From Candidatus Microgenomatus sp. (GTDB lineage Bacteria; Patescibacteriota; Microgenomatia; UBA8517): DNA of 64,000 nucleotides. The stretch covers positions 9,564 through 73,563 of the forward strand of contig DYGT01000004.1 in assembly GCA_020724555.1 (NCBI GenBank), read 5' to 3'. The position numbers were made by a program, and so were the translations under genes. Below are positions 21,672 through 58,544 of the stretch, one piece after another (position 1 is the stretch's first letter; every line of letters starts with the position of its first letter). Under the pieces are notes generated by a model. The model saw only the letters and a program-made list of their open reading frames with translations, did no database searches and was not told the DNA's origin.

Positions 21672-22318
21672 TTTATTTTTCTAATTTTAACAAGGTTAAG
21701 CATACCCCAGGCAAAATTACGATCCACCTCTACTCCAAAACCGGCTGCTTTTGCATATTTAGACAACTTATTATCTTTACTAAAAGACTGGATGTGGGTA
21801 TTATCCCATATTTTTGCCCACCAAAAATTTGTCACAAACCACCAAATAATTGTAAACAAAACGCTGTCGGTAGGGACGAGCAATATAGCATAGCCATCTT
21901 TTTTTAAAACGCGCTTTATTTCTTTTAGAACGATTTTAGGGCTTCTGACGTGTTCCATTACTTCCAGTGCAAATACTGCATCAAACTCGCTCTCGGCAAA
22001 AGGAAGTTTATGGGCATCTCCCAGTTTAAATTCCATTTTTTTTGTCCGCCAATGCTTATTTGCCCAATTTACGGATGATTGCAAAACATCAACTCCTATT
22101 AACTTGTCCGCTTTTGTTTTACTCATAATTTCATGGCTAAACAAGCCGTCAGCGCTACCGATATCAAGCACCGATTTAGCTTTATCTATTTCTTTTTTTA
22201 CTTCCCTGAACCGCATATTATGCCAATAACGCTGAAGCACATTCCTTCGTATAGATTGAAAATACCAATCGGGTGGTACGTTTTTATGCAGCGATGCTGC
22301 CTCTTTGAGACTATTCAT
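21668..22318 (-). CDS. Class I SAM-dependent methyltransferase
   Basis: VLDIGSADGLFS (motif I); FDAVFALEVMEHV. Confidence 0.8.
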   Translation of the reverse strand: MNSLKEAASLHKNVPPDWYFQSIRRNVLQRYWHNMRFREVKKEIDKAKSVLDIGSADGLFSHEIMSKTKADKLIGVDVLQSSVNWANKHWRTKKMEFKLGDAHKLPFAESEFDAVFALEVMEHVRSPKIVLKEIKRVLKKDGYAILLVPTDSVLFTIIWWFVTNFWWAKIWDNTHIQSFSKDNKLSKYAKAAGFGVEVDRNFAWGMLNLVKIRKIK

Positions 22319-23834
22319 TATTTAACTTTCTTTTTTGTACTACAATATCACCAAAGGACTTTTCCTCAAGCAAAACAGACCTACTATCCTCATATGAAAT
22401 AGTATCACTAATAAATTTGCTTGGTATACCGGCAGATGGTTCTAAAATCAAAAAACTAACGTCGGATTTTACCTCACTCGGCAGGTTATTGCCTAGCCTG
22501 CCCACCTGATCGCGGCCGATCCAAACTGGTAAAAAGCCGTATTTATCCACTCCGTACCAATTGTACAAATAAGACCAAACAGAGTTGATCCACAATGGAG
22601 AAGTAACGGAATTGATGGCAAAATTGCCACCACCTTCGCTATATGTATAATCAATTGCCGCAAGCTCTTTGGCCAGCACCATATCTTTTTGAATCGAGAA
22701 TATGGTTGCACCATTTTTATTCTCGCGCAAAATCATGGATATATTTGTTATAGCAATTAATATAACAAAAATACCTACCCCAACTCTTTTGCCGGTTTCC
22801 CATTGCTTTCTGAGAAAAATTCCCATTAAAACCGTGACTGCCGGCCCAATCCCAACCATTAAAAAAGGTGTACTTGTGCCACCAACCGAAACGACACTCA
22901 GATGCGCCAATAGCCATGTTGCTAAAAACGGCTCCCAGGAAATCGTGCGTGTATTTTTACTTTTGCGCCAATAGACAAGGCTCATTATTAAAATGGTAAA
23001 TACAAAAAAGGCCCCATAACCTATGTTGCCCGGATATGTCCAATAAGCAAAAACACGACCTATTTGGTTTAAAAATAAAATCAGATAATCGCCAAAACTT
23101 TTAGCCATTTTCAATGAACCTTCCGCGTTTGCCAAACTTGTCAAACCCCAAAAACCCCTAAAGCCAAATTTAATTTCCGTTAAAATCATGGTGCTGACGG
23201 ATAACAAACCACAGACAATAAATTGAAACACTTCTTTTTTGTTGATTTTCTCTCGCGCCACCCACAGCCAGATTAATAGAGGGAGCGTATGGTAAAGTAA
23301 AAACACCTCCGCTTGTACCGAAAAACCCAAAGCAACTGCGGCCAACGCCGGGGCATATTTGTGTTTTTTATTTATCCATAACCAAAGCCCTAAATAAAAA
23401 ACAGGTACTGTAACTATGGCTATTGTGGGGTTACTTAACCAAGTTGCATATTGAGTGGCTTCAAACGACACGGCATAAAAAAATCCCGTTAAAATTGCCG
23501 CACCCCATTTTTTGGTCATAAAATAAGCAATCACCGAAACCACAAAAATTCCTAGAGAATTAAAAATGGCAAGCCAATAAGCAGCAACTACAGGATTGTC
23601 CGACACAAGATATGGAGGCACTAAAAAGTAATAATATAAAACGCCGTGGTATAGCCCCGGAGTCGAAGACGGAGGCCCAAGTACTTTTAAATCCCCGGAA
23701 ATAATTTCTTTTGTGACATATGCGTCGCGCGCTTGGTCATAACCAAAAGTAAGCGAATTTTGCGGCAAAAACATTACTCGCAAAAAAATTCCAAATAAAA
23801 ATATTAAAACAAATATAATAATTTTACTTTTCAT
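22311..23834 (-). CDS. ArnT-like GT-C membrane glycosyltransferase, family C paralog C1
   Basis: FGYDQARDAYVTKEIISGDLKVLGPPSSTPGLYHGVLYYYF. 507 aa, polytopic. Confidence 0.6.
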   Translation of the reverse strand: MKSKIIIFVLIFLFGIFLRVMFLPQNSLTFGYDQARDAYVTKEIISGDLKVLGPPSSTPGLYHGVLYYYFLVPPYLVSDNPVVAAYWLAIFNSLGIFVVSVIAYFMTKKWGAAILTGFFYAVSFEATQYATWLSNPTIAIVTVPVFYLGLWLWINKKHKYAPALAAVALGFSVQAEVFLLYHTLPLLIWLWVAREKINKKEVFQFIVCGLLSVSTMILTEIKFGFRGFWGLTSLANAEGSLKMAKSFGDYLILFLNQIGRVFAYWTYPGNIGYGAFFVFTILIMSLVYWRKSKNTRTISWEPFLATWLLAHLSVVSVGGTSTPFLMVGIGPAVTVLMGIFLRKQWETGKRVGVGIFVILIAITNISMILRENKNGATIFSIQKDMVLAKELAAIDYTYSEGGGNFAINSVTSPLWINSVWSYLYNWYGVDKYGFLPVWIGRDQVGRLGNNLPSEVKSDVSFLILEPSAGIPSKFISDTISYEDSRSVLLEEKSFGDIVVQKRKLNNE

Positions 23835-44107: not shown

Positions 44108-45362
44108 AAATTGCCTTTAGAGATATATAAAAAGAAGAAGCCGCAAATATGCTTCTGACTATACTTTTAACCATAAAAACATCGATATAGTGGGATAGGA
44201 TTTTGTCTAAAGGTTTAGCTTGTAAAATTTTAGGAAATAGCGGGTTAAACAATCCAAATGAAAGTGAGGGTTCAAACAAAAACGTCAAAACCAGCCAGCT
44301 TATAAATATGACCGCCACCAACTCCCACATATAAAAATTATTTTTTACTAAAAACCATATCAGCAGTGGGCTCGCCCACACAAACCATTGGGGGTGAAAA
44401 TGGCTTACGGAAAAAATTAACAACAAGGCGGCCAGATACAATCCGTTTAAAGAAACGCGGTGTCTTTGGTAATAAACTAAAAAATATAATACAAACAATA
44501 AAAGTACAAATGGATAAACCACCTCGGCGGCCGTAACATTAAGCCCCATAAATAGCATTTTTTGGCTTTTGGGAGAAAATAAAACCATGCTGCGGAAAGC
44601 GCTTGAACCTAAAAAAGGCAGGATTGTTATAACAAATGGGGTTAAGCCTAAAAGAATCAGCTTAAATCTTGATAAAAATTTACCCGATAAATAAAAGGCT
44701 GCAAGGGGCAACAACAAAAGCGGATACAATTTATACGCCCCTCCGATTCCCAGACTGACCACCGCTAAGTTAGGCTTCTGTTTTTTAACAAAATAAAGCG
44801 AGAGCACAACAAAAAAAGTGGGCAAAATATCGAGCTGCCCGATCATAAAAGTGGCGTATATCGTCAGCGGATTAAACATCCAAAAAGCAAACGCTTTTAT
44901 TTTTTGTTTTTTATCAGAAAACAAGCTAGAAAGCATAAAGGCTATCCCGATATCAAAAAACAAATATGGTAATTTATAAAACAAGAGGTGGCGATAAAGG
45001 CCCTGATATTCATAAACATTATCCAGATTACTCCAAAGCCATGGAATAAAATTATTATCTGTAAACGGAGCGACTAAGATCCGAAATAACCCAAGCGTAA
45101 AATATGTAAGAGGTGGATAGATAAAAATATCAGAAACCCCGAAATTTAAAACCAAAGGGTGTTCAGGGGGAAGACTTAGCAAGTACTCGTAGATATTAAA
45201 TACGCCCTCGGAAGAAAAAAAATATGCCGTAAAGCTGTGCCCCCAAAGGTCCGGGTGCAGGGTTATAGGCATTAAAATTAGCCTGAGCATTATTCCCAGA
45301 ATAGCCATTTTAAACCACCAAAAATTTTCTGTTTTTTTCATATTTTTAAAGTTTATCATCAT
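44094..45362 (-). CDS. Polytopic membrane protein, family E paralog E2
   Basis: LHPDLWGHSFTAYFFSSEGVFNIYEY. 422 aa, many TM segments. Confidence 0.45.
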   Translation of the reverse strand: MMINFKNMKKTENFWWFKMAILGIMLRLILMPITLHPDLWGHSFTAYFFSSEGVFNIYEYLLSLPPEHPLVLNFGVSDIFIYPPLTYFTLGLFRILVAPFTDNNFIPWLWSNLDNVYEYQGLYRHLLFYKLPYLFFDIGIAFMLSSLFSDKKQKIKAFAFWMFNPLTIYATFMIGQLDILPTFFVVLSLYFVKKQKPNLAVVSLGIGGAYKLYPLLLLPLAAFYLSGKFLSRFKLILLGLTPFVITILPFLGSSAFRSMVLFSPKSQKMLFMGLNVTAAEVVYPFVLLLFVLYFLVYYQRHRVSLNGLYLAALLLIFSVSHFHPQWFVWASPLLIWFLVKNNFYMWELVAVIFISWLVLTFLFEPSLSFGLFNPLFPKILQAKPLDKILSHYIDVFMVKSIVRSIFAASSFYISLKAIYEKS

Positions 45363-46926
45363 TCATGCTTGTTTCCGACATAAGCTCAAAAAGATAAAAA
45401 GTATCATATTCTCCGTGTTTATGAAATTCAAAAATATCTTGGGGGCGCAAAGCTTTTTTAAATTCTTTTACAATACGAAGGTTATGATTTTCAAAATCAG
45501 AAAACTTTAGCCTCGAACTGTTCACTGCAAAATAGGTTAAATTACCGGCTTTTTTTGACTCAACAAGGCTCTCGGGAACTTCTTTAAAATCCAACCCGGT
45601 GCCGATTACCAAAACATTTGGCGTTCCCTGCAAATAAATTTGCATGCCGTCCGGAAGCGTACCAAAATAACCTTCCGTTCCCACAACTATTTTTTTGTCC
45701 GGATTTTCCGTTTGAATATCTTTAATTATGTCCGACGCTTCCTTAATACCCGTGCCCGATGTCCACTCTTCCAGATAACCGGACCGTTCGCTTCTGGGGA
45801 GATTGGCGGCGCTTGGGTTAGTTAAAAGTTTTTGATTATAAATAAAGGCCTGCAGTATAAATATGCCAAGTATTATTAGAGCAGCTTTTTTTAAATATAA
45901 TTTTTGAGTAGAAAAAAAACCGGCCGCTAATATATACAAAGGTGGAAGCGTAAACAAAATATAGCGTGCCGTAAATACCTTGGCATACATTGCCTGTATG
46001 CTTAGCGGAAACAAAAATAAAAATAAAAGCAAAAGTGTCTCACGCCATTTGCTTTTTATATTTAAAAATACGGCTCCAACGGCTAAAAACAAGATTGTTC
46101 CTGGTCCCATAATCCAAATCCACTCCAAAGCACGGTCAAGATGAGGAATAAACGGATCCATGGGATTTTGCCAAATATGACTGATGGGAAAAACATAGTC
46201 CTGAGTACGCGAGCTTAGCATATGAAAATTGGGGCCTAAGCGCTGAATGTTATATAAACAAAAAGCAAAAGTATAAATAACACCCACCAAAAACCCCAAT
46301 TGCAAAATGTTTATAAATATCTTTTTTTTAGGCCAAGGAAGGCTTAATATCCAAAACAAAGGCAGCATGATTGCTACAAATAAAGCCGGTGATTTAGTAA
46401 GACTGGTCAGCCCCAGAAACATACCTGTCATAATTGCGGTATCGATTCGTTTTGTTTTAGCGGTAAGGGCTGCAAACATAAAAGTCAGGGTTGTTAAAAA
46501 AGCCAAAAGAGAATCCACCAAAGCCATCCGGTCAAAAAACAGCGAAAAAGGCGATATTGCCCAAAGCAAAGAGGCTACAAGCGATACTTTTTTGTCGTTA
46601 AATAACAACTGGCTAAGTAAAAATATTGCTATCACAGTCCCCAACCCAGCTGCTACGGAAACCAATCTTCCGGCAACTAACGGGTCAGAGAATCGGTTTA
46701 CTAAAAACATTAAAACCCACATAAATAAAGGTTGTTTACCATCGGAAAGTGGCAAAAAACGAAGCGTCGGCTCGGCCGCCATCACTTGCGACCAGCGTAT
46801 ATAGATGGCTTCGTCTGCAAATATAGGTAAAATCGTTAGGTTAAAAATCCGAAGAAATAAAGCGATTAATAAAATTATGAGTAACACCGCCAAATAGGGC
46901 AACCAAGACATAATTTCTTTTCTCAT
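45346..46926 (-). CDS. ArnT/GT39-like GT-C membrane glycosyltransferase (A10) with a C-terminal extracytoplasmic domain
   Basis: ILPIFADEAIYIRWSQVMAAEPTLRFLPLSDGKQPLFMW parallels ArnT DEARYAEISREML...PHLNGLRYFEKPPLGYW. Confidence 0.6.
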   Translation of the reverse strand: MRKEIMSWLPYLAVLLIILLIALFLRIFNLTILPIFADEAIYIRWSQVMAAEPTLRFLPLSDGKQPLFMWVLMFLVNRFSDPLVAGRLVSVAAGLGTVIAIFLLSQLLFNDKKVSLVASLLWAISPFSLFFDRMALVDSLLAFLTTLTFMFAALTAKTKRIDTAIMTGMFLGLTSLTKSPALFVAIMLPLFWILSLPWPKKKIFINILQLGFLVGVIYTFAFCLYNIQRLGPNFHMLSSRTQDYVFPISHIWQNPMDPFIPHLDRALEWIWIMGPGTILFLAVGAVFLNIKSKWRETLLLLFLFLFPLSIQAMYAKVFTARYILFTLPPLYILAAGFFSTQKLYLKKAALIILGIFILQAFIYNQKLLTNPSAANLPRSERSGYLEEWTSGTGIKEASDIIKDIQTENPDKKIVVGTEGYFGTLPDGMQIYLQGTPNVLVIGTGLDFKEVPESLVESKKAGNLTYFAVNSSRLKFSDFENHNLRIVKEFKKALRPQDIFEFHKHGEYDTFYLFELMSETSMNDDKL

Positions 46927-47007
46927 TACTCTAAATTGTAGCGCAAACGAAGTTATTTAAAAATTGCATCTTTTTATTTTTTTTGTTTTTCTGGTCTAAA
47001 CGCTTTA

Positions 47008-47021
47008 ATGTATCGATACAT
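47008..47021. promoter_or_regulatory. Perfect 14-bp palindrome ATGTATCGATACAT in the only sizable intergenic gap (46927..47087) of the minus-strand gene string. Candidate operator or promoter element.
   Basis: Read directly from the sequence. It lies upstream, on the minus strand, of the start of 45346..46926. Confidence 0.3.
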
Positions 47022-47028
47022 CAATACA

Positions 47029-47050
47029 AATATAACAAAATATAACAAAA
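47029..47050. repeat. Short tandem direct repeat (ATATAACAAAA x2) in the intergenic gap
   Basis: aatataacaaaatataacaaaa read from the sequence. Confidence 0.4.
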
Positions 47051-47087
47051 ATAAAATTAAGGACATGGAGCAAAAAATAGAATTTAA

Positions 47088-47894
47088 CTAAGAATTGATT
47101 TTATACTTACCTTGAATTGCATTCAGGCGCACACGAACTAAGTCCCGCAATCCCTGCCATGCGTCTTTTATGGGACTAACTCTTTTTGTATCCTGGTGGT
47201 GCCAAATGACTGGAACTTCCACAACTTTCAAACCAAGCTTTCTTGCTACATAAAGTACTTCCAAATCAAAACCGGCAGTAACGGCAGCACCTTTTGCTTT
47301 TTGTTCTTCACTAAAAATCTTTAAGCGTTTAAAAATTTCCTTTGACGCGTCTTGTTTGAATGCTTTAAAACCACACTGGGTATCTTTAAAGGGCAAACGC
47401 AATATGAGGCTACGAAGGAAAGAAAATCCCCAGGCCATGGCTTTTCGGACCAAAGGAGCTCCCTGCCTTCCTGAACGTACACCAATCACCACATCTGCTC
47501 CTTTTCTGAATTCCGGTATAAACTTATCAAATTCAGGCAAAGGGGTTGCCTGGTCCATATCTGTAAATAAAACAATATCCCCCCTGGCTTCAAGCATACC
47601 GGCAATTACCGTACCGCCTTTACCGCGGTGTGGCTGGGCAGATACACGAAATCCTTTGTGTTTTTTGGCGTAATCTTGTGCCAATTTTAAGGTATTATCT
47701 GTAGACTTATCGTCTACCACCAGCACTTCCCAGGTAAAATTTTGTTTAACTAAATACTGGTTTACACTCTCAAGCGTACCGTTTTTGATATTATCCGCTT
47801 CGTTATATGCGGGTATAACAACGGACAGATAAAGATTTTTTGTGTCTAAAGCCATAGCCTTTATTATTGTAACTTGATTACTTTGTAAAACCAA
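47088..47894 (-). CDS. GT2 polyprenyl-phosphate sugar synthase (DPM1/GtrB-like)
   Basis: LSVVIPAYNEADNI; WEVLVVDDKSTDNT; GKGGTVIAGM; TDMD. Confidence 0.8.
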   Translation of the reverse strand: MVLQSNQVTIIKAMALDTKNLYLSVVIPAYNEADNIKNGTLESVNQYLVKQNFTWEVLVVDDKSTDNTLKLAQDYAKKHKGFRVSAQPHRGKGGTVIAGMLEARGDIVLFTDMDQATPLPEFDKFIPEFRKGADVVIGVRSGRQGAPLVRKAMAWGFSFLRSLILRLPFKDTQCGFKAFKQDASKEIFKRLKIFSEEQKAKGAAVTAGFDLEVLYVARKLGLKVVEVPVIWHHQDTKRVSPIKDAWQGLRDLVRVRLNAIQGKYKINS

Positions 47895-49374
47895 ACATAG
47901 GATCGGTCAAATTTGCATTATTCCCACTGCAGCTTTTTTTGATTTCATCCTCCTTTTTGTGAGAATATTTTTCATAATCCGGCAGGATTAACCCTAGTGC
48001 ACCAAAAGATTTATCAATCCTGTCCACTTTGGTATGGGGAAAGACAATTGTATACACGGGGCTGCCAGAAGATGGCTGGTTGGCGTGCAGATCGTTTAAA
48101 TAAAAAATGTAGCGGTAACCAAGCTCATAACCGGGGTCTACAATGTATGAAACCGAAACACACGGGTAATTATGATCTTCGGCATCTTCGGCAATAAAAG
48201 CGACAACCTCATTTTTCTGTAAATAACCGCTTTTATTTTCCGGATAACGGGAAAAACGGTACAAATTAATAACAACAAACAAGGCAAGAATAAATACAAC
48301 AAAAGTTCTCATGTATCGCGTTAAATAAGCCAAGGCGGCACTTATTCCGAATATCCACACAACCACCATTCCGTTTAAATAATATTCGGATACATTAATC
48401 GCATTTAATGTGAAAAAAGAAACATATAATATTAACCAGATTACTAAAAGAGTCGCAAATCTGGGTTTTATATGCTTTTTAAAAACAGCGTATGTAAATA
48501 ACAAAAGAATAAGTCCATGTGCCCATATGTCCGGTATGTTAAAGACATCACCCCACAACAAATTCCGCGCATTTGTATTTGCAATTTGCATTAATCTGCC
48601 AAAACGAGAAGGTAAAGAAACATCTGCCGCAGAAGTGCCTCCCAATATAATAGCCTGTGTTTGGATAAACCCGTGCCTCAATTCAAAAACAAAATACGGA
48701 AGCATTGGTAAGATAAACGCGGCTAAAAAATAAAAAATGTTTTTAATGGCAATTTTTTGTTTAGATATGATTATTGCCAGAAAAAATAACGGAGCGACAA
48801 TCGCCAGCCCCAGGTTTAAATGCCACACTAAACCAAACAATAACCCGGCAGCGATAAATGCGCTTTTTTGTTTTCTTGCCAATACGAGATGAAGTGTATA
48901 CAGGAACCAAATACTCCAAAGATAAACAGGCATGGTGGGAACGACCTCTCGGTCCGTAAAAATTACAACATACGAAAAGCTGTATATTATGGCACCAATC
49001 AAGCCGGCTTTTCTGTCTATAATTTTTGTAAATACAAAATATATACTAAATACGGATAAAAGACTCAATATAGCGACCAACAAAAGACCGCCGTAAGGCT
49101 GTCCCGCAAAAAGTAGATAAAAAGGAATCAGTAAATAATAAAAAAACGGCCCTATAAATACGCCATGGACAGATGTCTCTTGGCCGATAAGCCTAAGGTG
49201 GCTGTTTTTAACCACATCCAAATAAAACCACGATGCCAAATCCTGATCGTGCCCATAATAATAATATGAAAGCGGCTTATAAACTCTTAAGGCAAAAGCA
49301 GCAATCATTACCACAAAAAAAACGTAATCTATTGGCTTAAGGTTGGAAAAAATATTTTGTAAGTTTTTCTTCAT
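47878..49374 (-). CDS. ArnT-like GT-C membrane glycosyltransferase, family C paralog C2
   Basis: YGHDQDLASWFYLDVVKNSHLRLIGQETSVHGVFIGPFFYYLLIPFYLLF. Confidence 0.55.
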   Translation of the reverse strand: MKKNLQNIFSNLKPIDYVFFVVMIAAFALRVYKPLSYYYYGHDQDLASWFYLDVVKNSHLRLIGQETSVHGVFIGPFFYYLLIPFYLLFAGQPYGGLLLVAILSLLSVFSIYFVFTKIIDRKAGLIGAIIYSFSYVVIFTDREVVPTMPVYLWSIWFLYTLHLVLARKQKSAFIAAGLLFGLVWHLNLGLAIVAPLFFLAIIISKQKIAIKNIFYFLAAFILPMLPYFVFELRHGFIQTQAIILGGTSAADVSLPSRFGRLMQIANTNARNLLWGDVFNIPDIWAHGLILLLFTYAVFKKHIKPRFATLLVIWLILYVSFFTLNAINVSEYYLNGMVVVWIFGISAALAYLTRYMRTFVVFILALFVVINLYRFSRYPENKSGYLQKNEVVAFIAEDAEDHNYPCVSVSYIVDPGYELGYRYIFYLNDLHANQPSSGSPVYTIVFPHTKVDRIDKSFGALGLILPDYEKYSHKKEDEIKKSCSGNNANLTDPMFGFTK

Positions 49375-50284
49375 CTATACCTTTATATTTATATTTATCT
49401 ATGTTTTTCAGGGCTATTTTGCCAGTAAAAAGGTTGATAAGTTTATTTTTGTTTATATTTTTAATTTTTTGTTCATGATAATAATACATTGCAGGCTTAA
49501 TAAAATCACCAGGCTTTGACGTATTAACAAAGCCAAATTTATGTCTAGCCGCCCTTTGCCAAGCCAGATCTTTTGAAAAACCAATACTTCTGAAATATTC
49601 GTAAATATCCCTTAAACTCCCTTTCGTACCAATATTTGTGGCAACATATTCAGCAGCATGCTGATAATATGAGCTTTCTCCGCCGGGACTAAAAAAATCC
49701 TGAACATAAGACGCAAGTCCCTCATCTGTAGGTAAAAAACCAGCTTTAAAACGGATTTTGTTGTATTTTCCATTTATAAAACGCACAATATGAACCATTT
49801 CATGTTTTACCAGACCTTCAATACTTATATAATCAGTAACAATATCTGCACCTATGTAAACCTTATTTTTGCTATAAGCAGGACGTACATTAAAACCGCC
49901 GGTTTTTAAAAATTGGATTTTAAAGTCTATACCAAAAAGCTTTAGGGTTTTTTGTAATTGCTTTTTTAATTTTTCAGTTTCTGTTGACATCCTTTGCGGT
50001 TTTGTTTTTTTAATGTACTTTTCGGCTTCCTTAAGAACCTCGCTGTTTATGTCGGTTTCAAAATATTTTTTTGCCTTACTTTCAATTAATTCATTATCTT
50101 GTGCCTTCATGGCTTTAAAAAGTGCAGACTTTCTGCCCAAATGATCATGCGGAGCATGTTTATTTTGCCAAACATACATAAACACGGGGTTGTATGTTTT
50201 TGAAGCATAAAATTTCTCTTTTTCTGTGTGTAAATTTAATGGAGTAGTTAACCAAATAAGGCTTTTTTTGTTATTCATCTGCAC
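49337..50284 (-). CDS. DUF1704/MATCAP-like putative zinc metallopeptidase (HExxH plus an EGLA-type motif)
   Basis: HEMVH (in VKHEMVHIVRF) followed by TDEGLASYVQD, which resembles the QEGLA signature of DUF1704 proteins. Soluble, 315 aa. Confidence 0.45.
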   Translation of the reverse strand: MQMNNKKSLIWLTTPLNLHTEKEKFYASKTYNPVFMYVWQNKHAPHDHLGRKSALFKAMKAQDNELIESKAKKYFETDINSEVLKEAEKYIKKTKPQRMSTETEKLKKQLQKTLKLFGIDFKIQFLKTGGFNVRPAYSKNKVYIGADIVTDYISIEGLVKHEMVHIVRFINGKYNKIRFKAGFLPTDEGLASYVQDFFSPGGESSYYQHAAEYVATNIGTKGSLRDIYEYFRSIGFSKDLAWQRAARHKFGFVNTSKPGDFIKPAMYYYHEQKIKNINKNKLINLFTGKIALKNIDKYKYKGIDEEKLTKYFFQP

Positions 50285-51830
50285 TTAAACGTATACGTTT
50301 TTCTACTGTTATTCCTCCAAAACGCACTCTTTTTACAACTTTTCCTATTCCATCCTGCCTTTTAAGCCAATTTTCAAGTCTTTCCGGATGTGGAGGATCA
50401 ACCTCATACAAAGTGTATAAAATATTTTCTTGAGTCTCTTTTGAGGGTTTTTCTCCCCTCAAGTTCCCGCGCCAGAGAAACAAATAATCATAGGCATGCG
50501 GAATAACCGGCGGCACGTACACATCCACATTAAAAGGTTTTCCTTTTGCATCTTCATAAACCCAGTCAACCGCCTGAACTTCATTTTTTAGGGCAATCGA
50601 ATGCTCTCCCGTGACCCCGTCTGATATCTTCGCCCAAATTACCGGAATATTATTGTTCAAAACAGCAAATAAAAACAGTAAAACAAATATTTTGCCTGCT
50701 AAATTTTTCCAGGCTCTACCCAAAATAAACGCTACTAAAAGCAAAAAAATCAGATAATATCCGGTGAGATAATAATCATAGATATTTCCATAGTTCCCCT
50801 GAAAAAATAAAAGCCCAAGCATGGGTGAGATGAGAAGAATAACCAAAATTTTAAAGCCGTCATTTTTCCACAGGTCTTTTATATATAAAACGAATAAAAA
50901 CAAAAGGCCAATAAGCAGGCTTACTTCAAAATCGCGCCGCCAATGGAAAAGTTTGTTTGTAAAAACATCATAATAAAAATTTAGTCTTATTCTCAAAACA
51001 TCCCAAAAATTTGCTTTAAAGGTTCCTTTTTCAAATATAAAATTCTTTATATTGCCGATCAGGATGCCGTCATGGCGGATATCAAACAAAATTAACGGTA
51101 GAATTGTCAAAAAAAAGAGAAGTATAGAAACTACCCACGTTTTGCCGTTTGGCAAATTCTTTCTTTGCCAAAATGCGATTAAAAATACCGCGGGAAAATA
51201 AAAAAGTTCTCCACTGGAGCCAAAATGAAAAAGACTCATACCCAAAATTAAAGAAATAGCCGCCCAGAGCCACCGATAACCCTTTGTCACAAAATAAAGG
51301 CAAATCACAAGCAGCATACTTAAAAAAAGCATGGGCGTAGGGTTACTCAACCAACGTGCGGCCATATTAATATAAAAAGAAAAGCTTGCCAGAAAAACCG
51401 CAATTAGGCCGGTTACTCTCGATTGTGCGGAAGCAGCATAAATATACATCACGACAAACGCCAATATAGTCAATATCGACAAAAATATCGCAGGCCACAC
51501 TGGGTTTCCATTGCCTAAAAAGTAAAAAGGAGTAATTAAAAAATAATAAAAAGGTCCTCTGAAGATACCGGCTATTCCAGTTGTTGGCCCCACTAAAAAC
51601 AGCTTACCTTCGTGTAAAAAACGCCAGATAACCATAGCATCCCTGCCTTGGTCAAAATAAAAACCCAGCACCTTGTCAACACGGTAAACCTGCAAAAACA
51701 AACCAATGGCCAAAATGGTGAGCAAAAGAAAATAAATATAAATATTATCTTTAATTTCTTTTTTGATTTTTACATACATCGCACGCAACATTATGAATTT
51801 TCTTAATAGCCCGGTCAAATGGCAGGCCAA
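50271..51830 (-). CDS. ArnT-like GT-C membrane glycosyltransferase, family C paralog C3. The true start is probably an internal Met, which reduces the overlap with the upstream DHH gene.
   Basis: FYFDQGRDAMVIWRFLHEGKLFLVGPTTGIAGIFRGPFYYFL. Confidence 0.55.
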   Translation of the reverse strand: MACHLTGLLRKFIMLRAMYVKIKKEIKDNIYIYFLLLTILAIGLFLQVYRVDKVLGFYFDQGRDAMVIWRFLHEGKLFLVGPTTGIAGIFRGPFYYFLITPFYFLGNGNPVWPAIFLSILTILAFVVMYIYAASAQSRVTGLIAVFLASFSFYINMAARWLSNPTPMLFLSMLLVICLYFVTKGYRWLWAAISLILGMSLFHFGSSGELFYFPAVFLIAFWQRKNLPNGKTWVVSILLFFLTILPLILFDIRHDGILIGNIKNFIFEKGTFKANFWDVLRIRLNFYYDVFTNKLFHWRRDFEVSLLIGLLFLFVLYIKDLWKNDGFKILVILLISPMLGLLFFQGNYGNIYDYYLTGYYLIFLLLVAFILGRAWKNLAGKIFVLLFLFAVLNNNIPVIWAKISDGVTGEHSIALKNEVQAVDWVYEDAKGKPFNVDVYVPPVIPHAYDYLFLWRGNLRGEKPSKETQENILYTLYEVDPPHPERLENWLKRQDGIGKVVKRVRFGGITVEKRIRLSADE

Positions 51831-52749
51831 TCACTTTCCCGGCTGCAGCCCAGCGGTGGCCTCCGCCATCCAACTTTTCAGCTATTTCAGACACATCAAA
51901 ACCGCTTCTGGAACGAAGGCTTACAGATACATAGCCATCATTTTCCTCCACTATCACCATACCAAATTCAGTACCTTTTATGCTTTGAAAAATGATGTCT
52001 GCAATCTCAGATTTACTCCCAACAGGCGAGCCGTATTTCCCAAAAACGTCCCGTCCAATTGCAGACCAGACATAGTTATATTCAGAATTTATCTCTAAAT
52101 TTTCAAGGATCTCACCCCATAGCTTTACTGATTCAAGCTCATAAGACTGGTATAAATTTTTTATAATTTCGTCTTTGTCAGCAAACTCCATTAAATCAAG
52201 CGCCGCCTTAAAAGTTTCCGCATCCGCCTCGGGAAAACGAAAAGCGCCCGTATCCCCAATAATTCCGGTTAAAAGGGGAGTTGCAACCTCACTGCCCTTT
52301 ATATCAATATCCCAGTCTTTAAATAAATTGATAAGGAGCTGGCATGTGGCTGCGATACCGGGATCTAGCAAATTTAAATCTCCAAACTGTGTATTGGTTT
52401 TGTGGTGATCGATTACCACCATTTTAATCATTGGTCGTTTAACATCGGAATCTGCAGCCACCCTTTGCCAGCTTGATGAATCCAAACAAATCAGCAAATC
52501 CCACTCAAAAAAATTGAAATCGCGAAAAATAATTTTGTCAATCGCACCAAACTTTTCTAAAAATTTTAGGTTTCTGGGTATTTCATCCGGACAAATCACT
52601 TTAACTTCTTTTCCCCAGCCCAATAGAACCTGCCGCAATGCTTGAGCACTGCCGACACTGTCTGCATCCGGCCGGCTATGGCAATTCAATAGAATCCTGT
52701 CCGCCTCTTTAATTAATTTAAGTATTTCTGACGATTCTGGATAATTCAT
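51751..52749 (-). CDS. DHH-family phosphoesterase (NrnA-like nanoRNase/pAp phosphatase)
   Basis: HSRPDADSVGSA; VIDHHKTN (DHH motif); GGGHRWAAAG (DHHA1 motif). Confidence 0.85.
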   Translation of the reverse strand: MNYPESSEILKLIKEADRILLNCHSRPDADSVGSAQALRQVLLGWGKEVKVICPDEIPRNLKFLEKFGAIDKIIFRDFNFFEWDLLICLDSSSWQRVAADSDVKRPMIKMVVIDHHKTNTQFGDLNLLDPGIAATCQLLINLFKDWDIDIKGSEVATPLLTGIIGDTGAFRFPEADAETFKAALDLMEFADKDEIIKNLYQSYELESVKLWGEILENLEINSEYNYVWSAIGRDVFGKYGSPVGSKSEIADIIFQSIKGTEFGMVIVEENDGYVSVSLRSRSGFDVSEIAEKLDGGGHRWAAAGKVIGLPFDRAIKKIHNVACDVCKNQKRN

Positions 52750-54314
52750 TGTGTTTGTGGATTTGAGTGAATAAGTTTAAATATGGTTATCCCATCGACT
52801 TGCCAGGTTTTTTCAATCTGAGACCAGCCAAAATTAGCAACTTCGGCTTTGGGGTTATGCGTTGGGTCGCACTCACTTTCCGGTTTTTCGCAAACAACAA
52901 AAAGCTGATCAGCAATTGTTTCCTCTGCACGCAAAGGATCAATATCTACGACCCCCGTATTCCATTTTTCCAAAAAATACTGGTAAGCATCCTCATAGTT
53001 GCGTTCGGCAATTACCGCTAGATTAAATGGTTGATCACCCGCTTCTTTTCGGATAGATTCAGATACTCTGGCAGTACGCCTTAACTGATAATTCGGAGGA
53101 TCTTTTAGTGGTATATTGGTTAAATCCGCCCAGGCTATAAATATTATTGCCAGCCCGGAAATCCAAATTCCGCGGATTTTATGGTTATCTATCAGTTGAT
53201 TAAGCATGCCCCCCAAAAGCAAAAATGGTGCCGGGTATAAAAAACCAAAATAATGATCATAAATATGCTGTTTGTATAACCCCAAACCCATTAAGCCAAA
53301 GCCAATCCAAATAAGAATCAGTAAATACGCAGATTTCTCTTTGGGGTGAATATTTATTTTTTTGTCCTTGCCCCAAAGCCACAACAGGACTCCTGCAAGC
53401 CCAACTGCCACCCATTTGCCAAACGTTTCTTCTCTACCAGTAACAACCCGCGCTACAAACTGCTGCCACAAAGGCCACATCTGGGGTATAGCATTCCAGG
53501 GACGCGCAGACACAGTGGTTTGGCGCACTGTAAAAAATGTCTTCATGGCGTTAAAATTTATAAAATTGTGTCGCAAGTCAAAAATTAAAAGCGGGGACAT
53601 GAGAAACGCAAAAACAAAAAAAGAGAATATTGAATATCGAAGATAGAGAGAAGTATTTTTAAGATATCTGGCTTCTATTAGAGCTAAAAACCAAATTGCA
53701 CCTAAAGCTGGCGCCAAAAGGAGACCTAAATAGTGAGACTGTAAAACAAATGCAAATGCTATGGCAGCAAAAACAAGCCAATAATATTTACGCCTCTTCC
53801 ACACTTGCCAGATAGCCCAGAAGCACAAAAGTGAAAAAAACGGCATAATATTAGGGTTCCAGGATGCGCGCGAATAAATAATCACGGTGGGAGAAATACT
53901 ATACAAAAAAGCGGCAATTAGACCGGCTTTTACTCCAAACCAGCTCCTACCTGCCCACCAGATAAAACCGACGGTTACCACTCCCAATAAAGCGACAAAT
54001 ACGGATGGACCCACTGGCGAAAAATTTGCGAAAAGAAGAGCAGGGGCAATTAGATAATAATATAATGGCCCAAGATACATGTTGCCGATTGACGTCCCCG
54101 GCCCGATCAAAATTGGGTCAAAATCTACCAAAAGCCGTCTGACAATTATCGCATCCCTGCCCTCATCGCCCAAAAACGTCATATATCCGGCAATTTTATA
54201 AAGACGCAAAAACGAAGCCAGTATTAAAATAATGCCAATTAAAATAGCTTCAATTTTGTGAGATTTAATCCAGCTTTTTATTTTTGTCTTCGCCATGATT
54301 TTTGTCTTCGCCAC
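52746..54314 (-). CDS. ArnT-like GT-C membrane glycosyltransferase, family C paralog C4. The annotated start is GTG, with an in-frame ATG 6 codons downstream at 54296.
   Basis: FLGDEGRDAIIVRRLLVDFDPILIGPGTSIGNMYLGPLYYYL. The N-terminus MAKTKIMAKTKI arises from an 18-bp tandem duplication. Confidence 0.55.
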   Translation of the reverse strand: MAKTKIMAKTKIKSWIKSHKIEAILIGIILILASFLRLYKIAGYMTFLGDEGRDAIIVRRLLVDFDPILIGPGTSIGNMYLGPLYYYLIAPALLFANFSPVGPSVFVALLGVVTVGFIWWAGRSWFGVKAGLIAAFLYSISPTVIIYSRASWNPNIMPFFSLLCFWAIWQVWKRRKYYWLVFAAIAFAFVLQSHYLGLLLAPALGAIWFLALIEARYLKNTSLYLRYSIFSFFVFAFLMSPLLIFDLRHNFINFNAMKTFFTVRQTTVSARPWNAIPQMWPLWQQFVARVVTGREETFGKWVAVGLAGVLLWLWGKDKKINIHPKEKSAYLLILIWIGFGLMGLGLYKQHIYDHYFGFLYPAPFLLLGGMLNQLIDNHKIRGIWISGLAIIFIAWADLTNIPLKDPPNYQLRRTARVSESIRKEAGDQPFNLAVIAERNYEDAYQYFLEKWNTGVVDIDPLRAEETIADQLFVVCEKPESECDPTHNPKAEVANFGWSQIEKTWQVDGITIFKLIHSNPQTQ

Positions 54315-55003
54315 AAAGTGAATAAATCTTTAAAACTTTGAATAATAACATTAAAATTACGCCCTGTGGGTTTTCCCCCGGCGCGTGGATAATGCGTAAC
54401 CGGCACTTCAACTATTTTAGCACCGTTTTGTTTAGCTTTAATCAATAATTCGCTGCTTATAAATGCTCCGCGTTCACTTTCGAGCTTGGGAATTTTATCC
54501 ACAACTTCTTTTCTTATTAGCTTAAAACCGCAATCAATATCGCGCACATGCAGTCCAAAAAGTAAAAATACCAAAAGCTCCCAAAGCTTGGATGTAATGA
54601 TTACACTTTTTTTAACCTGTCTTTTTTTGTAGTATCCCACTATTAAATCGGCGTTGGTTTTTTGTTGCTTGTCTATAAATTTTGTGATTTCCGAAAAGTC
54701 AAACTGGCCGTCTGAATCCGTAAAAGTAATCCACGGGTATTGGGCCGCGTATATTCCGCTCTTAAAAGCCGCTCCATAGCCTCGGTTGGGATTGTGGTGA
54801 ATAACGCGAATGTTTTTATTTTCGCGGGCAAGCTCATCTGCGATTTTTCCCGTACTGTCGGTAGACCCGTCATCCACAATTATTATTTCCCATAAATCGA
54901 ATTTGTCCTTTAAAACCTTTAGAGCTTTTCTAACCGTATTTTCAATATTTTCCTCTTCGTTATAGGCAGGAAAAAAGACGCTTATTTCTTTAAAAGAATC
55001 CAT
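54278..55003 (-). CDS. GT2 polyprenyl-phosphate sugar synthase (DPM1/GtrB-like)
   Basis: ISVFFPAYNEEENI; WEIIIVDDGSTDSTGKIA; NRGYGAAFKSG; TDSDGQ. Confidence 0.8.
   Translation of the reverse strand: MDSFKEISVFFPAYNEEENIENTVRKALKVLKDKFDLWEIIIVDDGSTDSTGKIADELARENKNIRVIHHNPNRGYGAAFKSGIYAAQYPWITFTDSDGQFDFSEITKFIDKQQKTNADLIVGYYKKRQVKKSVIITSKLWELLVFLLFGLHVRDIDCGFKLIRKEVVDKIPKLESERGAFISSELLIKAKQNGAKIVEVPVTHYPRAGGKPTGRNFNVIIQSFKDLFTLWRRQKSWRRQK
54281..54316. repeat. Imperfect 18-bp tandem direct repeat (tttttgtcttcgccatga / tttttgtcttcgccacaa) spanning the C4 start codons and the 3' end of the upstream GT2 gene
   Basis: Read directly from the sequence, 16/18 identity. It produces the duplicated MAKTKI peptide. 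Confidence 0.7.
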
Positions 55004-55019
55004 ATTTGCAGTCTAGCAT

Positions 55020-56207
55020 ATGAGCGAAAAATATTATAATATTGGGCTACTTATGAAAAAAATGGGCAAATACTTCCCTTTGATTTTTTTCACCTTAATA
55101 CCCACTTTACTTATCTGGTTGCCGTTTTTTTTTCGCTTAGATAGTTTTTGGAATATCCCTCTCCCTCGTGATGGTATGCTAACTATAGTTTCTAATTACG
55201 ACGGTCCACTCTATATCGCGGTCGCAAAAACACTATACAACAAAGAAGCACTAGCACAATTTTCTTTTGATCTACCTTTGGAATATTACGCTGCTCACTT
55301 TCCCTTGTTTCCCCTTTTAATTAGACTTCTCGGGAACGTATTAGTATACCCATACGCCATGCTTTTAGTCACTGTTTTCGGCTCTTTTTTGTCAATAGTT
55401 TATTTTTACAAATTAATAAAAAATTATGTAAGACCTCAAAAAGATGCCTTTTGGGCAACATTTGTTTTTTCCATTTTCCCGGCGCGTTGGCTAATTGTAC
55501 GCTCCGTAGGCAGCCCGGAGCCTTTGTTTGTAGGAGCCATAATAGCCTCAATATACTACTTTAAAAATAAAAAATATTTCTGGGCAGGAGTTTGGGGAGC
55601 ACTGGCGCAGTTAACTAAATCTCCCGGGATACTTCTTTTTATAGCCTATATCGGAGCTATTATCTTGCCCGAAATCCGAAAACTTGCTGCAACTCGCTTA
55701 GAGCACTGGATTAAAACCATCGAATTTAAATCCTTTTGGGTATTTTTAATACCGGCCTCCTTACTGGGTGTTTTTGTTTTTTATTCACAAACCATGAACG
55801 ACTTTTTTGCTTATTTCCACTCGGGCGATAACATCCATTTGGTTTTTCCCCCTTTTCAAGTTTTTAATTACCAAGCAAGCTGGGTAAACACACATTGGCT
55901 TGAGGAGATAATCATATTTTACCTTCTGGCGGCTTGGGGAGTACTTAAGCTTATTGAAAAAAAAGAAGAAACGCTTGCTTGGTTTACCGGAATCTTTTTG
56001 CTTTCCATTTTTTTTGTTTCTCACCGCGATATAATCCGCTATGCGCTTCCAATTATTCCCTTTTTATACGTAGGCTATAGCGAAATAATTACCAGCCAAA
56101 AATTTAAAATTGCCTTTATATTAATTATCCTACCCATATATTTATTTTCTTTGGCGTTTATATCTAAAAATGTGATGCCAATTTCTGATTGGACCATGCT
56201 CCTTTAA
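55020..56207 (+). CDS. Polytopic membrane protein, family D paralog D2 (PIG-V/Gpi18-like GT-C candidate)
   Basis: NYDGPLYIAVAKTLYNKEALAQF...HFPLFPLLIR parallels D1 DGEHYLAIAKEGY...FFFPVYPLFIR. Confidence 0.5.
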   Translation: MSEKYYNIGLLMKKMGKYFPLIFFTLIPTLLIWLPFFFRLDSFWNIPLPRDGMLTIVSNYDGPLYIAVAKTLYNKEALAQFSFDLPLEYYAAHFPLFPLLIRLLGNVLVYPYAMLLVTVFGSFLSIVYFYKLIKNYVRPQKDAFWATFVFSIFPARWLIVRSVGSPEPLFVGAIIASIYYFKNKKYFWAGVWGALAQLTKSPGILLFIAYIGAIILPEIRKLAATRLEHWIKTIEFKSFWVFLIPASLLGVFVFYSQTMNDFFAYFHSGDNIHLVFPPFQVFNYQASWVNTHWLEEIIIFYLLAAWGVLKLIEKKEETLAWFTGIFLLSIFFVSHRDIIRYALPIIPFLYVGYSEIITSQKFKIAFILIILPIYLFSLAFISKNVMPISDWTMLL

Positions 56208-56449
56208 AAAAACTTGAGAGCCTTTGAAAGCGAAAACTTCTTAAAATAGATACATGGCAGAAAGAAGACCCGGTCTCAATTCCAGTGAAAGAAGATTACA
56301 CAGAGCAAGAACGGTATTTCTTGCAGCAACGAACCCAGACGGGACATTATTGGTACCTTGGGGCTCAGCTCAACCAAGAAACGGCTTCTCAAAAGAAACG
56401 CCAAAAACTATTAATATTGAACACGAGCGGCCGCCGGAGGTAAAAACCA

Positions 56450-57313
56450 TTACTGTATACGAAGCCCAAGCCGCTGATTGACTAAAGCCACCTGTGTTTG
56501 AGCAACTTTGCCACCCATAAGCTTTTGGCGGTACACATTTACGATTTCATAAACACCGCTTCTTAGCTTCCCGGCGTTGGCTAATTGGGCAATTTCAGCA
56601 AAACTCAAAAACCTATACTCCTTCATGCGGAAACTCGAAAAGCCTTGTGTTCCAGCAATTTCAACCGGTATTTCCAGATGGTAAATAAAAAGCGAAATAT
56701 CCAGTATTTTTATTTTAAAAATCAAATCAAGGTCTTTGTCCGAAATTTTTACGGGGACTACGCCATTGACTGCATTTTTGGAAAAAACCTCTTGCTGAAG
56801 TACACGCATCGCGGAAATCGTTTTATTTTCTCCCTTTTTGGAAAAAGTCATGGGGATGCTGATGGCGCCTCTTTTTTTACCATAAACAAAATTCGGCATG
56901 GAAATGTCTCTGGCTGTTAAAATTTTTTGGGCTTCATTTTTAACGGTTATAACCAGACCGGTAGCGGCACGCCTGGTAATGTCTTGCTTTATGTGGTTAT
57001 AAATCCTGTGCAAGGTAATTTTGGAGGTTTGAAAACTCGGGGGAAGTTTTTTATAAAGCTCTTCTAATGGCAGTTTTTCTTCTGCCAAATACTCCATAAA
57101 CGCCAATGCTTCGCTCATTTTTCCATGAGGACCCGCGGCTTTTACGATATTGTTTTTGTCCAGAAGCCTATGATACGAAGCCGGTGAAATAGGCAAAGCG
57201 TAATAATGTTTTTTTAAAACTGCGTCAACAGAACCATATTTTAAATACTGGGAAATTAAAAATTTATTAAAATCTTCCTCTTTTTTGCGGGGATCTATAT
57301 TCATCATGAACAA
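56450..57313 (-). CDS. Hypothetical soluble protein (287 aa)
   Basis: Long ORF with no recognisable motif. Only the ORF itself supports it. Confidence 0.4.
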   Translation of the reverse strand: MFMMNIDPRKKEEDFNKFLISQYLKYGSVDAVLKKHYYALPISPASYHRLLDKNNIVKAAGPHGKMSEALAFMEYLAEEKLPLEELYKKLPPSFQTSKITLHRIYNHIKQDITRRAATGLVITVKNEAQKILTARDISMPNFVYGKKRGAISIPMTFSKKGENKTISAMRVLQQEVFSKNAVNGVVPVKISDKDLDLIFKIKILDISLFIYHLEIPVEIAGTQGFSSFRMKEYRFLSFAEIAQLANAGKLRSGVYEIVNVYRQKLMGGKVAQTQVALVNQRLGLRIQ

Positions 57314-57338
57314 ATATTATATCGTTTTTACAGAAAGT

Positions 57339-58544
57339 TTATGTTTTAATTACCCGCTTCCCACCAAACATGCGTGGCAACTTCCAGCTTTTCCAAATAA
57401 CGACATTGTACATAAAATAATTATAAGGAAGTACCAAAAACACGATAATGAACGGTAGCAACAATTGGCGGTATTGTTGGCCCAAGAGACTCACCCCTAA
57501 CGAGCCTACCACTGTTTGAATTAAAAGCGCCCCTATTGACGTGCCGTTAAACTGGATAAATTTCAAAAATAACTCACGCGCTCCGGTAATTTTTTCTTTT
57601 TTAAATGTCCAAATATTGTTAAAGGTAAAATTGTTTATTATGGCCAATTCCGTAGAACCCGCCCAGGCGAATACTTCCGGCCAATGCAAACGGCTGGCAA
57701 AAATATAAAGAAAAAACGCATTCACCAGATATCCGGCAAAACCAACCGTTCCGAATTTAATAAACTTTTGCTTGTCTTTTATTCCCAAAATTATGGCTAC
57801 ACGAAAAGTTGATATCATCTCTTTCATACTAAATTTAGAAGTCTCCTCCGTGCGGGGCGCAAACTCCAGAGGGACCTCTTTCACATTTTTAGCGTTTTTT
57901 ATTGATTGATACAAAAGATCTACTTTATAGGCAAACCGTTCGGGCTCCATCAGGCTGTCAAGGTCAATTTTGTCCAAAACGCCTTTTACTTTAGTGAGGC
58001 GAAAACCGGTAGTAAGGTCGTGTAATTTTGGCTTAAGCAAAACCAAACGGATAAATAAATTGCCGAAATAAGATATGGCTTTTCTGTGGATTGCCCACTC
58101 AGAAGGAACCGACCCGCCGGGTATATAACGGCTACCAATAACATAATCCGAACCGTTTAAGTAAGCCTCGACCATGGGCTTCACAAACCTGGGCGGGTGC
58201 TGAAAATCCGCATCCATTTCCATAACAGCATCCGCATTAAGCTTATCTTTGGCATATTTCATACCCCTTATGTATGCCCAGCCAAGGCCTTGTTTAGTTG
58301 ACTCCAAAAGATGAAGATTTTTATATTTTTTCATCTGAGACCGGACAATGTCTCCCGTCCCGTCGTCGGTGCCTTCCGCTGTCAAATCGTTGACGACCAA
58401 AAGATGCATATCTGCAGCAATTTTGGGAAACTCTTTTTCAAACAAAACAGGTACCATTTTACTAATATTTTCAGCCTCCTTATAGGTAGGCATAATAATT
58501 ACGACTTTTTGTTTTAAATTACTCACCATAATCCAATATATCAC
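57339..58544 (-). CDS. GT2 polyprenyl-phosphate sugar synthase (DPM1/GtrB-like) fused to a C-terminal GtrA-like 4-TM domain
   Basis: VVIIMPTYKEAENI; LLVVNDLTAEGTDDGTGDIV; GLGWAYIRGM; MDADFQH. C-terminal GTVGFAGYLVNAFFLYIF...ELAIINNFTFNNIWTFK is the GtrA signature. Confidence 0.85.
   Translation of the reverse strand: MIYWIMVSNLKQKVVIIMPTYKEAENISKMVPVLFEKEFPKIAADMHLLVVNDLTAEGTDDGTGDIVRSQMKKYKNLHLLESTKQGLGWAYIRGMKYAKDKLNADAVMEMDADFQHPPRFVKPMVEAYLNGSDYVIGSRYIPGGSVPSEWAIHRKAISYFGNLFIRLVLLKPKLHDLTTGFRLTKVKGVLDKIDLDSLMEPERFAYKVDLLYQSIKNAKNVKEVPLEFAPRTEETSKFSMKEMISTFRVAIILGIKDKQKFIKFGTVGFAGYLVNAFFLYIFASRLHWPEVFAWAGSTELAIINNFTFNNIWTFKKEKITGARELFLKFIQFNGTSIGALLIQTVVGSLGVSLLGQQYRQLLLPFIIVFLVLPYNYFMYNVVIWKSWKLPRMFGGKRVIKT

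Follow-up and report, generated by a model that had tools for sequence, protein, structure and literature searches.

A predicted cell-envelope glycosylation operon with a conserved twin-module core and a variable gene slot in Candidatus Woesebacteria

We analysed a 64,000-nucleotide stretch of contig DYGT01000004.1 (assembly GCA_020724555.1), called the window below, and in it a run of seven minus-strand genes at positions 47088-55003. These genes encode two glycosyltransferases of family 2 (GT2a and GT2b), three membrane glycosyltransferases of the GT-C fold class (C4, C3 and C2, here named family C), an NrnA-type DHH phosphoesterase and a MATCAP-like peptidase. The host belongs to Candidatus Woesebacteria (Microgenomates, Candidate Phyla Radiation or CPR), and the best genome relatives are metagenome-assembled genomes (MAGs) of Woesebacteria. 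Identical or nearly identical contigs are present in public assemblies. With a probability of roughly 60%, these genes form the core of a cell-envelope glycosylation operon that Microgenomates inherit vertically on the chromosome and that carries passenger genes. The core consists of two gene pairs, GT2a with C4 and GT2b with a transferase gene at 45346..46926, and the slot between the pairs is variable.

The conservation of the pairs was analysed in 80 related Microgenomates loci from GTDB, in which open reading frames (ORFs) were called and labelled by BLASTP against the window proteins. GT2a immediately precedes the C4 orthologue in 69 of 74 loci, and in 56 of 64 loci the next gene after GT2b is the orthologue of 45346..46926. 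In 18 of 67 loci, one pair adjoins the other without any gene between. Otherwise the gap has a variable content: C3, C2, other GT-C genes, NrnA, a PHP-type protein with a NUDIX or MazG-like gene, and an occasional IS200-like fragment. C2 is on the opposite strand in many Shapirobacteria, and C3 is present patchily. The backbone extends downstream to a PTPS_related GT-C gene, wzx, the gene at 31976 and several GT2 genes. The gene order is not due to chance, as it recurs in dozens of genomes. The IS200-like fragment, from a Y1 transposase, lies in the slot after C4 in one Shapirobacteria genome (L060:11390-11842), which would fit a permissive insertion site.

Phylogenetic trees were constructed by neighbour-joining on BLOSUM62 distances without bootstrap; their clades agree with synteny. 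GT2a, GT2b, the GT2-GtrA fusion at 57339, C4, C3, C2 and the 45346 protein each form a separate orthologous clade across Woesebacteria, Amesbacteria and Shapirobacteria. C1, a further family C paralogue at 22311..23834, is placed next to the C3 clade. Neither C2 nor C3 is accompanied by its own synthase. Thus the core is vertically inherited across the three groups, and the true modules are GT2a→C4 and GT2b→45346, both ancient and not recent co-duplicates. An initial annotation made from the sequence alone had drawn two synthase-transferase modules of near-identical layout within 47088-55003 and proposed to test them for co-duplication. The phylogenies give old separate clades for both the GT2 and the GT-C paralogues and reject co-duplication, and the transferase of the second pair lies outside that span. 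The same annotation suggested that each module adds a different sugar. The sequences allow this: the five GtrB-like GT2 proteins (3086, 43379, 47088, 54278 and 57339) are not near-identical (26-33% mutual identity, 33% between GT2b and GT2a), and synthases so diverged may use different donors. The combination of a twin-module core with a variable slot appears to be undescribed in the literature that we searched.

All seven ORFs are present at the coordinates reported by the initial annotation, and its gene order and family assignments were confirmed by the ORF listing and Pfam. In the direction of transcription, GT2a (54278..55003) is followed by C4 (52746..54314), the DHH/DHHA1 gene (51751..52749), C3 (50271..51830), the peptidase gene (49337..50284), C2 (47878..49374) and GT2b (47088..47894). 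An independent gene call, made on the identical public contig L001, places three starts further downstream: C3 by 13 codons (51791), the peptidase by two (50278) and GT2b by 13 (47855). With these starts, the overlaps are 37 nt for GT2a/C4, 4 nt for C4/NrnA, 41 nt for NrnA/C3, 8 nt for C3/peptidase and 38 nt for peptidase/C2, whereas GT2b follows C2 after a gap of 22 nt. The overlapping gene string that had been proposed is thus real from GT2a to C2 and does not extend to GT2b.

GT2a and GT2b (PF00535, E = 1.8e-35 and 1.2e-27, respectively) are predicted polyprenyl-phosphate sugar synthases. The best PDB matches of GT2a are ArnC (9bhc, 4e-16), DPMS, the dolichyl-phosphate mannose synthase of P. 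furiosus (5mlz, 1e-13), and Synechocystis GtrB sll0501 (5ekp, 3e-13). GT2b matches DPMS (5mlz, 1.3e-15), GtrB (5e-13) and ArnC (4e-11). The best NCBIfam matches are PgfS, ArnC, dolichyl-phosphate hexose transferases, AglJ and PpgS, in agreement with the GtrB-like label given initially. Both proteins align with polyprenyl-phosphate glycosyltransferases along the full catalytic and juxtamembrane region, and GT2a covers positions 4-218 of the 226-position PpgS model. GT2a and E. coli ArnC share 27% identity over 226 aa, and GT2a ends where the C-terminal transmembrane (TM) segments of ArnC begin. Indeed, no TM helix was observed in either GT2a or GT2b by a Kyte-Doolittle scan. No NCBIfam equivalog cutoff is reached by the GT2 proteins, and the sugar specificity cannot be called from sequence. 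These are enzymes of the GtrB/ArnC/DPMS type; since there are no TM helices and no equivalog-level match, polyprenyl phosphate is their putative acceptor. Small peripheral synthases without TM helices have a precedent in mycobacterial PpgS-like proteins.

C4 belongs to the GT-C fold class. An AlphaFold2 model built from an alignment (pLDDT 89, pTM 0.90) was compared by Foldseek with the PDB, and ArnT (5f15) was on top (E = 1.6e-8, TM-score 0.57), followed by STT3, AglB, PglB, Pmt4, ALG9/12 and Aft/Emb; all top 40 matches are GT-C enzymes. In the profile search against the PDB the only match was AglB (E = 0.0097). HHalign places the C4 residues D50-E51-G-R53-D-A55 on D31-E32-T-R34-Y-A36 of E. 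coli ArnT (E = 4.7e-4, 273 columns). The likeness to the DEARYA motif of ArnT noted initially is thus reproduced, the aligned E. coli motif being DETRYA, although with low statistical confidence. More than 3440 homologues of C4 were found, and the names given by NCBI and JGI are "glycosyltransferase family 39" or "ArnT-like".

The signature of family C proposed from the sequence proved to be real. D50, G71, G82 and Y86 do not vary among the 33 sequences compared, namely C1-C4 and 29 homologues. E/Q51, R53 and D54 are nearly invariant, C2 being the exception. The first-loop motif is FDQGRDA in C3 and YDQARDA in C1, and the C2 motif, HDQDLAS, departs from RDA. C1 departs from the GP motif (GVLYYY). 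The 45346 protein contains FADEAIY after TM1. There are five to seven Lys/Arg residues before TM1 in C4 and C3. By the positive-inside rule, this Lys/Arg-rich N-terminus would be cytoplasmic and the DxRDA loop would lie outside the membrane, the orientation on which the initial assignment depends. The pair C475 and C482 in the C-terminal soluble domain of C4 is nearly invariant, specific for C4 orthologues and absent from C1-C3; it may form an extracytoplasmic disulfide.

The membership of C1, C2 and C3 in the family follows from pairwise comparisons: C3 is 25% identical to C4 (522 aa, BLASTP E = 1.7e-29), C2 is 25% identical to C3, and C1, correctly taken for a fourth member, is 24% identical to C3 (525 aa, BLASTP E = 5e-21). 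The gathering threshold of Pfam PMT_2 (PF13231), 26.1 bits, is passed by C4 (40.4 bits, E = 4.5e-10) and C2 (39.3 bits, E = 1e-9); C3 scores 23.0 bits (E = 1e-4) and C1 has no Pfam match. Neither PF02366 nor a MIR domain was found by Pfam in C1-C4. The 45346 protein, a PMT/ArnT-type GT-C enzyme with the canonical ADE motif in loop 1, matches PMT_2 (1.9e-10) and PF02366 (2.1e-7) and has no MIR domain either.

The closest known enzyme is ArnT (family GT83) of Cupriavidus metallidurans (5F15/5EZM) and E. coli. It is the best structural match of C4, has a similar size and a small C-terminal soluble domain (alpha/beta in C4), and the motif D-E-x-R-x-A directly after TM1 aligns with C4. However, the identity is about 12%, and no match of C4 to a solved ArnT was found by phmmer or hmmsearch. 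C4 has motifs of its own (GPxTSxG, GPLYYY, FDxRH and the cysteine pair). Moreover, no genes of the arnABCD type for 4-amino-4-deoxy-L-arabinose (homologues of arnA, arnB and arnD) are present in the window, and lipid A synthesis is not known from CPR bacteria. Family C is a distinct, uncharacterised ArnT-like subfamily, and C4 belongs neither to GT83 nor to GT39 in the strict sense.

The first gene of the slot encodes a stand-alone protein with DHH (5.8e-15) and DHHA1 (5.9e-10) domains and visible DHH and GGGH motifs. Its full-length PDB matches are TmPDE of T. maritima (5o1u, 8e-44) and NrnA (5j21, 2e-27). The best NCBIfam match is NrnA, with 83.6 bits against a cutoff of 350. It is thus a distant member of the NrnA type, a predicted nanoRNase, dinucleotidase or phosphatase of adenosine 3',5'-bisphosphate (pAp), and the initial label was adequate. 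It resembles NrnA and TmPDE in both domains and in the full-length structure matches. On the other hand, it scores below the NrnA cutoff, and its gene is embedded among GT-C genes and overlaps them.

Of the 80 GTDB loci, 13, all from Woesebacteria, have the gene for NrnA between C4 and C3 (37-68% identity); it takes the same position in four further contigs (L085/L086, L096, L097) and in contigs of the same species. Four loci have a gene for a PHP-domain protein directly after C4 instead (L008:11358-12545, L011:11581-12606, L014:11638-12645, L018:9066-10091). These proteins match best RNase RNM (RNase AM) and 3',5'-nucleoside bisphosphate phosphatase (PDB 7ug9 and 2yb1). In function, RNase AM of the PHP type is analogous to NrnA. 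The PHP gene is followed by a NUDIX gene in L014 and L018 and by a MazG-like gene in L011; a MazG-like gene also occurs in L012, beside NrnA. Judging by these assignments, a non-homologous gene seems to have taken over one function in a fixed position, which suggests that a housekeeping function has been retained. We read the slot as a holder of housekeeping genes for nucleotide clean-up. The embedding of a nanoRNase gene, described initially as unexpected, is less odd, since the same slot of relatives carries a DHH gene or its PHP analogue, sometimes with a NUDIX or MazG-like gene.

The second soluble protein of the slot is a compact Zn metallopeptidase with a match to PF08014, formerly DUF1704 (1e-6, 28.4 bits, gathering threshold 27). 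The profile of its CPR family matches human MATCAP over the full length (7z5g, E = 9e-26). Its AlphaFold2 model (pLDDT 93) is similar to MATCAP (Foldseek TM-score 0.64-0.70), and no other structure is nearly as similar. The MATCAP-like label is thus supported by both profile and fold. H161, H165 and E188 are invariant and E162 is conserved (HEMVH ... E188), and the Glu of PTEEGLA is conserved in comparison with MATCAP. No TM segment was found, and the protein is predicted to be cytoplasmic. Its clade, which occurs in CPR alone, comprises about 80 clusters of approximately 315 aa each, all labelled "hypothetical". Human MATCAP (KIAA0895L; 7Z5G/7Z6S) has the same fold and profile and the same Zn-binding His/Glu/His with the downstream Glu. 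However, the CPR peptidase is only 19-20% identical to it and lacks the MATCAP N-terminal extension. The CPR clade has a canonical HExxH motif, whereas that of MATCAP, HEIGTH, has one extra residue between the ligands. Finally, the CPR peptidase is bacterial and has no tubulin substrate. Literature searches for DUF1704 and for MATCAP with ATP-grasp yielded nothing useful.

Three more Woesebacteria lineages (L085, L096, L097; 47-50% identity) have the peptidase gene in the same place, overlapping its neighbours between C3 and C2. The closer relatives L005 and L006 lack it in the slot, as do all 80 GTDB loci. The absence from the GTDB loci had pointed to a recent insertion at the species level, which was rejected because the slot is occupied in the three lineages. 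The peptidase is best read as a lineage-specific guest in the operon. In several other CPR, the MATCAP-like gene lies outside glycan loci, mostly among unrelated genes, with two exceptions. In one of these (L091:3712-6948), the gene lies directly after genes for a 7TM_transglut protein and an ATPgrasp_ST ligase; in another (L093:1819-6954), the gene order is the same, but an unannotated ORF of 317 aa and a RimK-like ligase gene lie in between. An Acyl_transf_3 gene is found upstream in both. This suggests a ligase/carboxypeptidase pair, reminiscent of tubulin tyrosination and detyrosination.

These observations lead to the following model. GT2a and GT2b would load sugars, probably a different one each, from nucleotide sugars onto polyprenyl phosphate at the cytoplasmic face of the membrane. 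The lipid-linked monosaccharide would then be flipped, the candidates being the GtrA domain of the 57339 protein and the Wzx-like proteins encoded at 34484 and 3849. At the outer face, the ArnT-like GT-C enzymes would pass the sugar to a surface glycopolymer or glycoprotein, presumably by means of the invariant Asp with which the first outer loop begins. C4 would be dedicated to GT2a and the PMT-like 45346 protein to GT2b. C3, C2 and C1 may be old accessory paralogues that add further linkages with donors that are shared or made elsewhere in the island. The NrnA-type enzyme and the peptidase would be soluble cytoplasmic passengers in the slot, co-transcribed and probably translationally coupled with the glycosyltransferase genes. 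NrnA would cover the nanoRNA and pAp clean-up of the cell, and the peptidase would be a guest whose usual partners in other CPR may be the ATP-grasp ligases.

A number of observations weigh against this model. Neither the single sequence of C4 nor a profile of 33 sequences gives a significant match to a GT-C enzyme of solved structure, and the HHalign probability of its alignment with ArnT is 33%. C3 and C1 are below the Pfam gathering score. The TM helices typical of GtrB, ArnC and DPMS are missing from the GT2 proteins, which are also below all NCBIfam equivalog cutoffs. There is no flippase gene adjacent to the modules. The function of the operon is predicted from sequence and structure. 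Lastly, the peptidase keeps its exact overlapping position in three further lineages, and the nanoRNase function is held in place by a non-homologous replacement; each of these could mean that the gene is more than a passenger.

Several other explanations were considered. The initial annotation compared the region to phage serotype-conversion cassettes, which implies that gtrA-gtrB-gtrC sets were acquired and lined up in the chromosome, and that every one of the duplicated modules adds a different sugar. Indeed, the predicted chemistry does not differ, as both use a GT2 lipid-sugar synthase with a GT-C transferase, and phage records contain distant family-level matches of GT2a (27-36% identity). 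However, no relative of C4 was found in 50,697 phage records. There is no integrase or other phage-type family among the 42 window ORFs scanned, and the tRNA and Rfam scans of the window found no tRNA and no Rfam family. The core is syntenic in Woesebacteria, Amesbacteria and Shapirobacteria, with old clades and no paired duplication. The GT2 proteins do not have the TM segments of GtrB, C2 and C3 are without synthases, and there is no stand-alone gtrA in 47088-55003, the sole PF04138 domain being fused to the GT2 at 57339. A phage origin is thus largely refuted and extremely improbable. The Gtr systems provide a valid mechanistic analogy as a three-component system, rather than the origin of the genes. 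A different acceptor is easier to accommodate. If family C enzymes were PMT-like protein O-glycosyltransferases acting on Ser/Thr of secreted S-layer or pilus proteins, the model given above would change in the acceptor alone. The PMT_2 matches, the NCBI name "family 39" and the presence of Pmt4 and oligosaccharyltransferase subunits among the structural matches are in favour of this variant. On the other hand, the best structural match, ArnT, is a lipid-acceptor enzyme, there is no MIR domain, and the Wzx, GT4, GT2 and YfhO genes of the island are typical of glycopolymer assembly, so that we consider it somewhat unlikely.

One more possibility is that the embedded enzymes act in the glycan pathway itself: NrnA or its PHP analogue could remove a nucleotide by-product, for example pAp from a decoration dependent on 3'-phosphoadenosine-5'-phosphosulfate (PAPS) or coenzyme A, and the peptidase could trim an amino-acid decoration or the C-terminus of an acceptor. 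This would explain why the position after C4 is held by NrnA or the PHP analogue and why the peptidase keeps its overlapping position, and the neighbourhood of 7TM_transglut, ATPgrasp_ST and acyltransferase genes in two other CPR is in line with it. However, no sulfotransferase, PAPS, carrier-protein or ATP-grasp genes were found in the window, and a link of pAp to sulfation or carrier proteins was rejected for lack of any supporting gene there. Many Microgenomates keep both modules with nothing or only GT-C genes between them, and L005 and L006 lack the peptidase. The slot companions NUDIX and MazG-like are generic house-cleaning enzymes. The GT-C reactions take place outside the cell, but both embedded proteins are soluble ones of the cytoplasm. 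Besides, overlapping strings of unrelated genes are a routine feature of CPR genomes. A role in the pathway is therefore distinctly unlikely. In its strongest form, surface-glycan assembly would need a nanoRNase or pAp phosphatase and, in one subclade, a MATCAP-type carboxypeptidase, which would be a bacterial counterpart of the tubulin ligase/MATCAP cycle because it adjoins ATP-grasp ligases in other CPR; this is very doubtful.

The model of a glycosylation core with passengers can be compared with the known three-component polyprenyl-phosphate-sugar systems GtrA/GtrB/GtrC, CsbB/GtcA/YfhO and ArnC/ArnEF/ArnT (PMC11127046, PMC7389260). As in these systems, a GT2 synthase gene lies next to a GT-C transferase gene, the transferase has the GT-C fold with an acidic motif in loop 1, and the CPR island contains a GtrA domain and a YfhO protein. 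Unlike them, the CPR synthases lack TM segments and the modules have no dedicated flippase gene. The sole GtrA is a domain fused to another GT2, whose gene lies two genes upstream. There are two tandem modules with up to three synthase-less GT-C genes between them, and the locus is vertically inherited, not mobile. In mycobacteria, PpgS (Rv3631) with Rv3779, and Ppm1 with PimE, Mpt and the Aft and Emb arrays, represent a similar situation in which a few small GT2 synthases supply many GT-C paralogues, and the fold search with C4 also retrieved AftA, AftB, AftD, Emb and PimE. However, there is no orthology, and all NCBIfam scores stay far from the cutoffs.

Attachment to other cells is the way of life of CPR bacteria, whose genomes measure about 1 Mb, and surface chemistry is central to this lifestyle. 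The class-wide core (GT2a→C4, GT2b→45346) with its variable slot provides a concrete unit for study. The twin-module core with a slot, the distinct ArnT-like subfamily, the apparent DHH/PHP replacement and the compact MATCAP clade, linked elsewhere to ATP-grasp ligases, are new. Since all parts belong to annotated, known enzyme families, the current understanding is not overturned.

The core is part of a much larger set of genes. Nearly the whole window (about 38% GC, nearly all genes on the minus strand) is a glycosylation island (1-60205), as follows from BLAST clustering and Pfam. It encodes at least 24 GT-C-like membrane proteins. Fourteen PMT_2-like GT-C proteins form one BLAST cluster, and there are several multi-TM proteins without a family besides. 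A family of ten GT-C paralogues (8919-20766, 28869, 36834) has about 30% mutual identity. Three PTPS_related/PMT_2 proteins are encoded in tandem at 38439-43395, and a YfhO protein at 23824. The island also contains nine GT2, three GT4, several methyltransferases, an SDR protein, an RmlA-like nucleotidyltransferase and two Wzx-like (MOP) proteins. The latter and the GtrA domain of the 57339 protein, the only GtrA-like candidate of the window, are the candidate flippases, and none of them is encoded within either module. The complete genome of a relative (CP055307.1) has 0.9 Mb, and about 60 kb of glycosylation genes are thus set in a genome of that class. In the literature on CPR, Microgenomates or Woesebacteria with GT-C, GT39 or mannosyltransferases, no description of such arrays was found.

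Upstream of the core, a multi-TM protein is encoded on the plus strand at 55020..56207 with weak family matches (PMT_2 4.5e-4; NCBIfam AZOBR_p60025, a family of cell-surface glycopolymer formation, 9e-12, below the cutoff). Its orthologue is a conserved neighbour in Woesebacteria and Amesbacteria loci, and so is that of the minus-strand gene at 57339..58544, in which a GT2 (PF00535, 3.9e-19) is fused to a GtrA-type domain with four TM segments (PF04138 GtrA_DPMS_TM, 4.9e-14). The minus-strand gene between these two (56450-57313) encodes a soluble protein of 287 aa without Pfam or NCBIfam match, kept in this position at 33-69% identity in Woesebacteria loci. The starts of GT2a and the multi-TM gene are 16 bp apart (55004-55019) and point away from each other; their promoters thus lie inside each other's coding regions or further off. 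GT2b and the 45346 gene are separated by an AT-rich spacer (46927-47087) of 161 nt, or 176 nt by the start of the gene caller, with a promoter-like sequence TTGCGC-17-TACAAT close before the ATG. In relatives, the orthologues of these two genes mostly overlap (median -14 nt). Promoter and terminator scans of 44000-59000 yielded fewer sites than shuffled sequence and are uninformative for operon mapping.

Many MAG records with this locus (L005, L007-L009 and others) are titled "uncultured Gammaproteobacteria bacterium", one "Clostridia" and one "Methanoperedens". These non-CPR titles are probably mislabelled, as the gene content and synteny clearly match Microgenomates.

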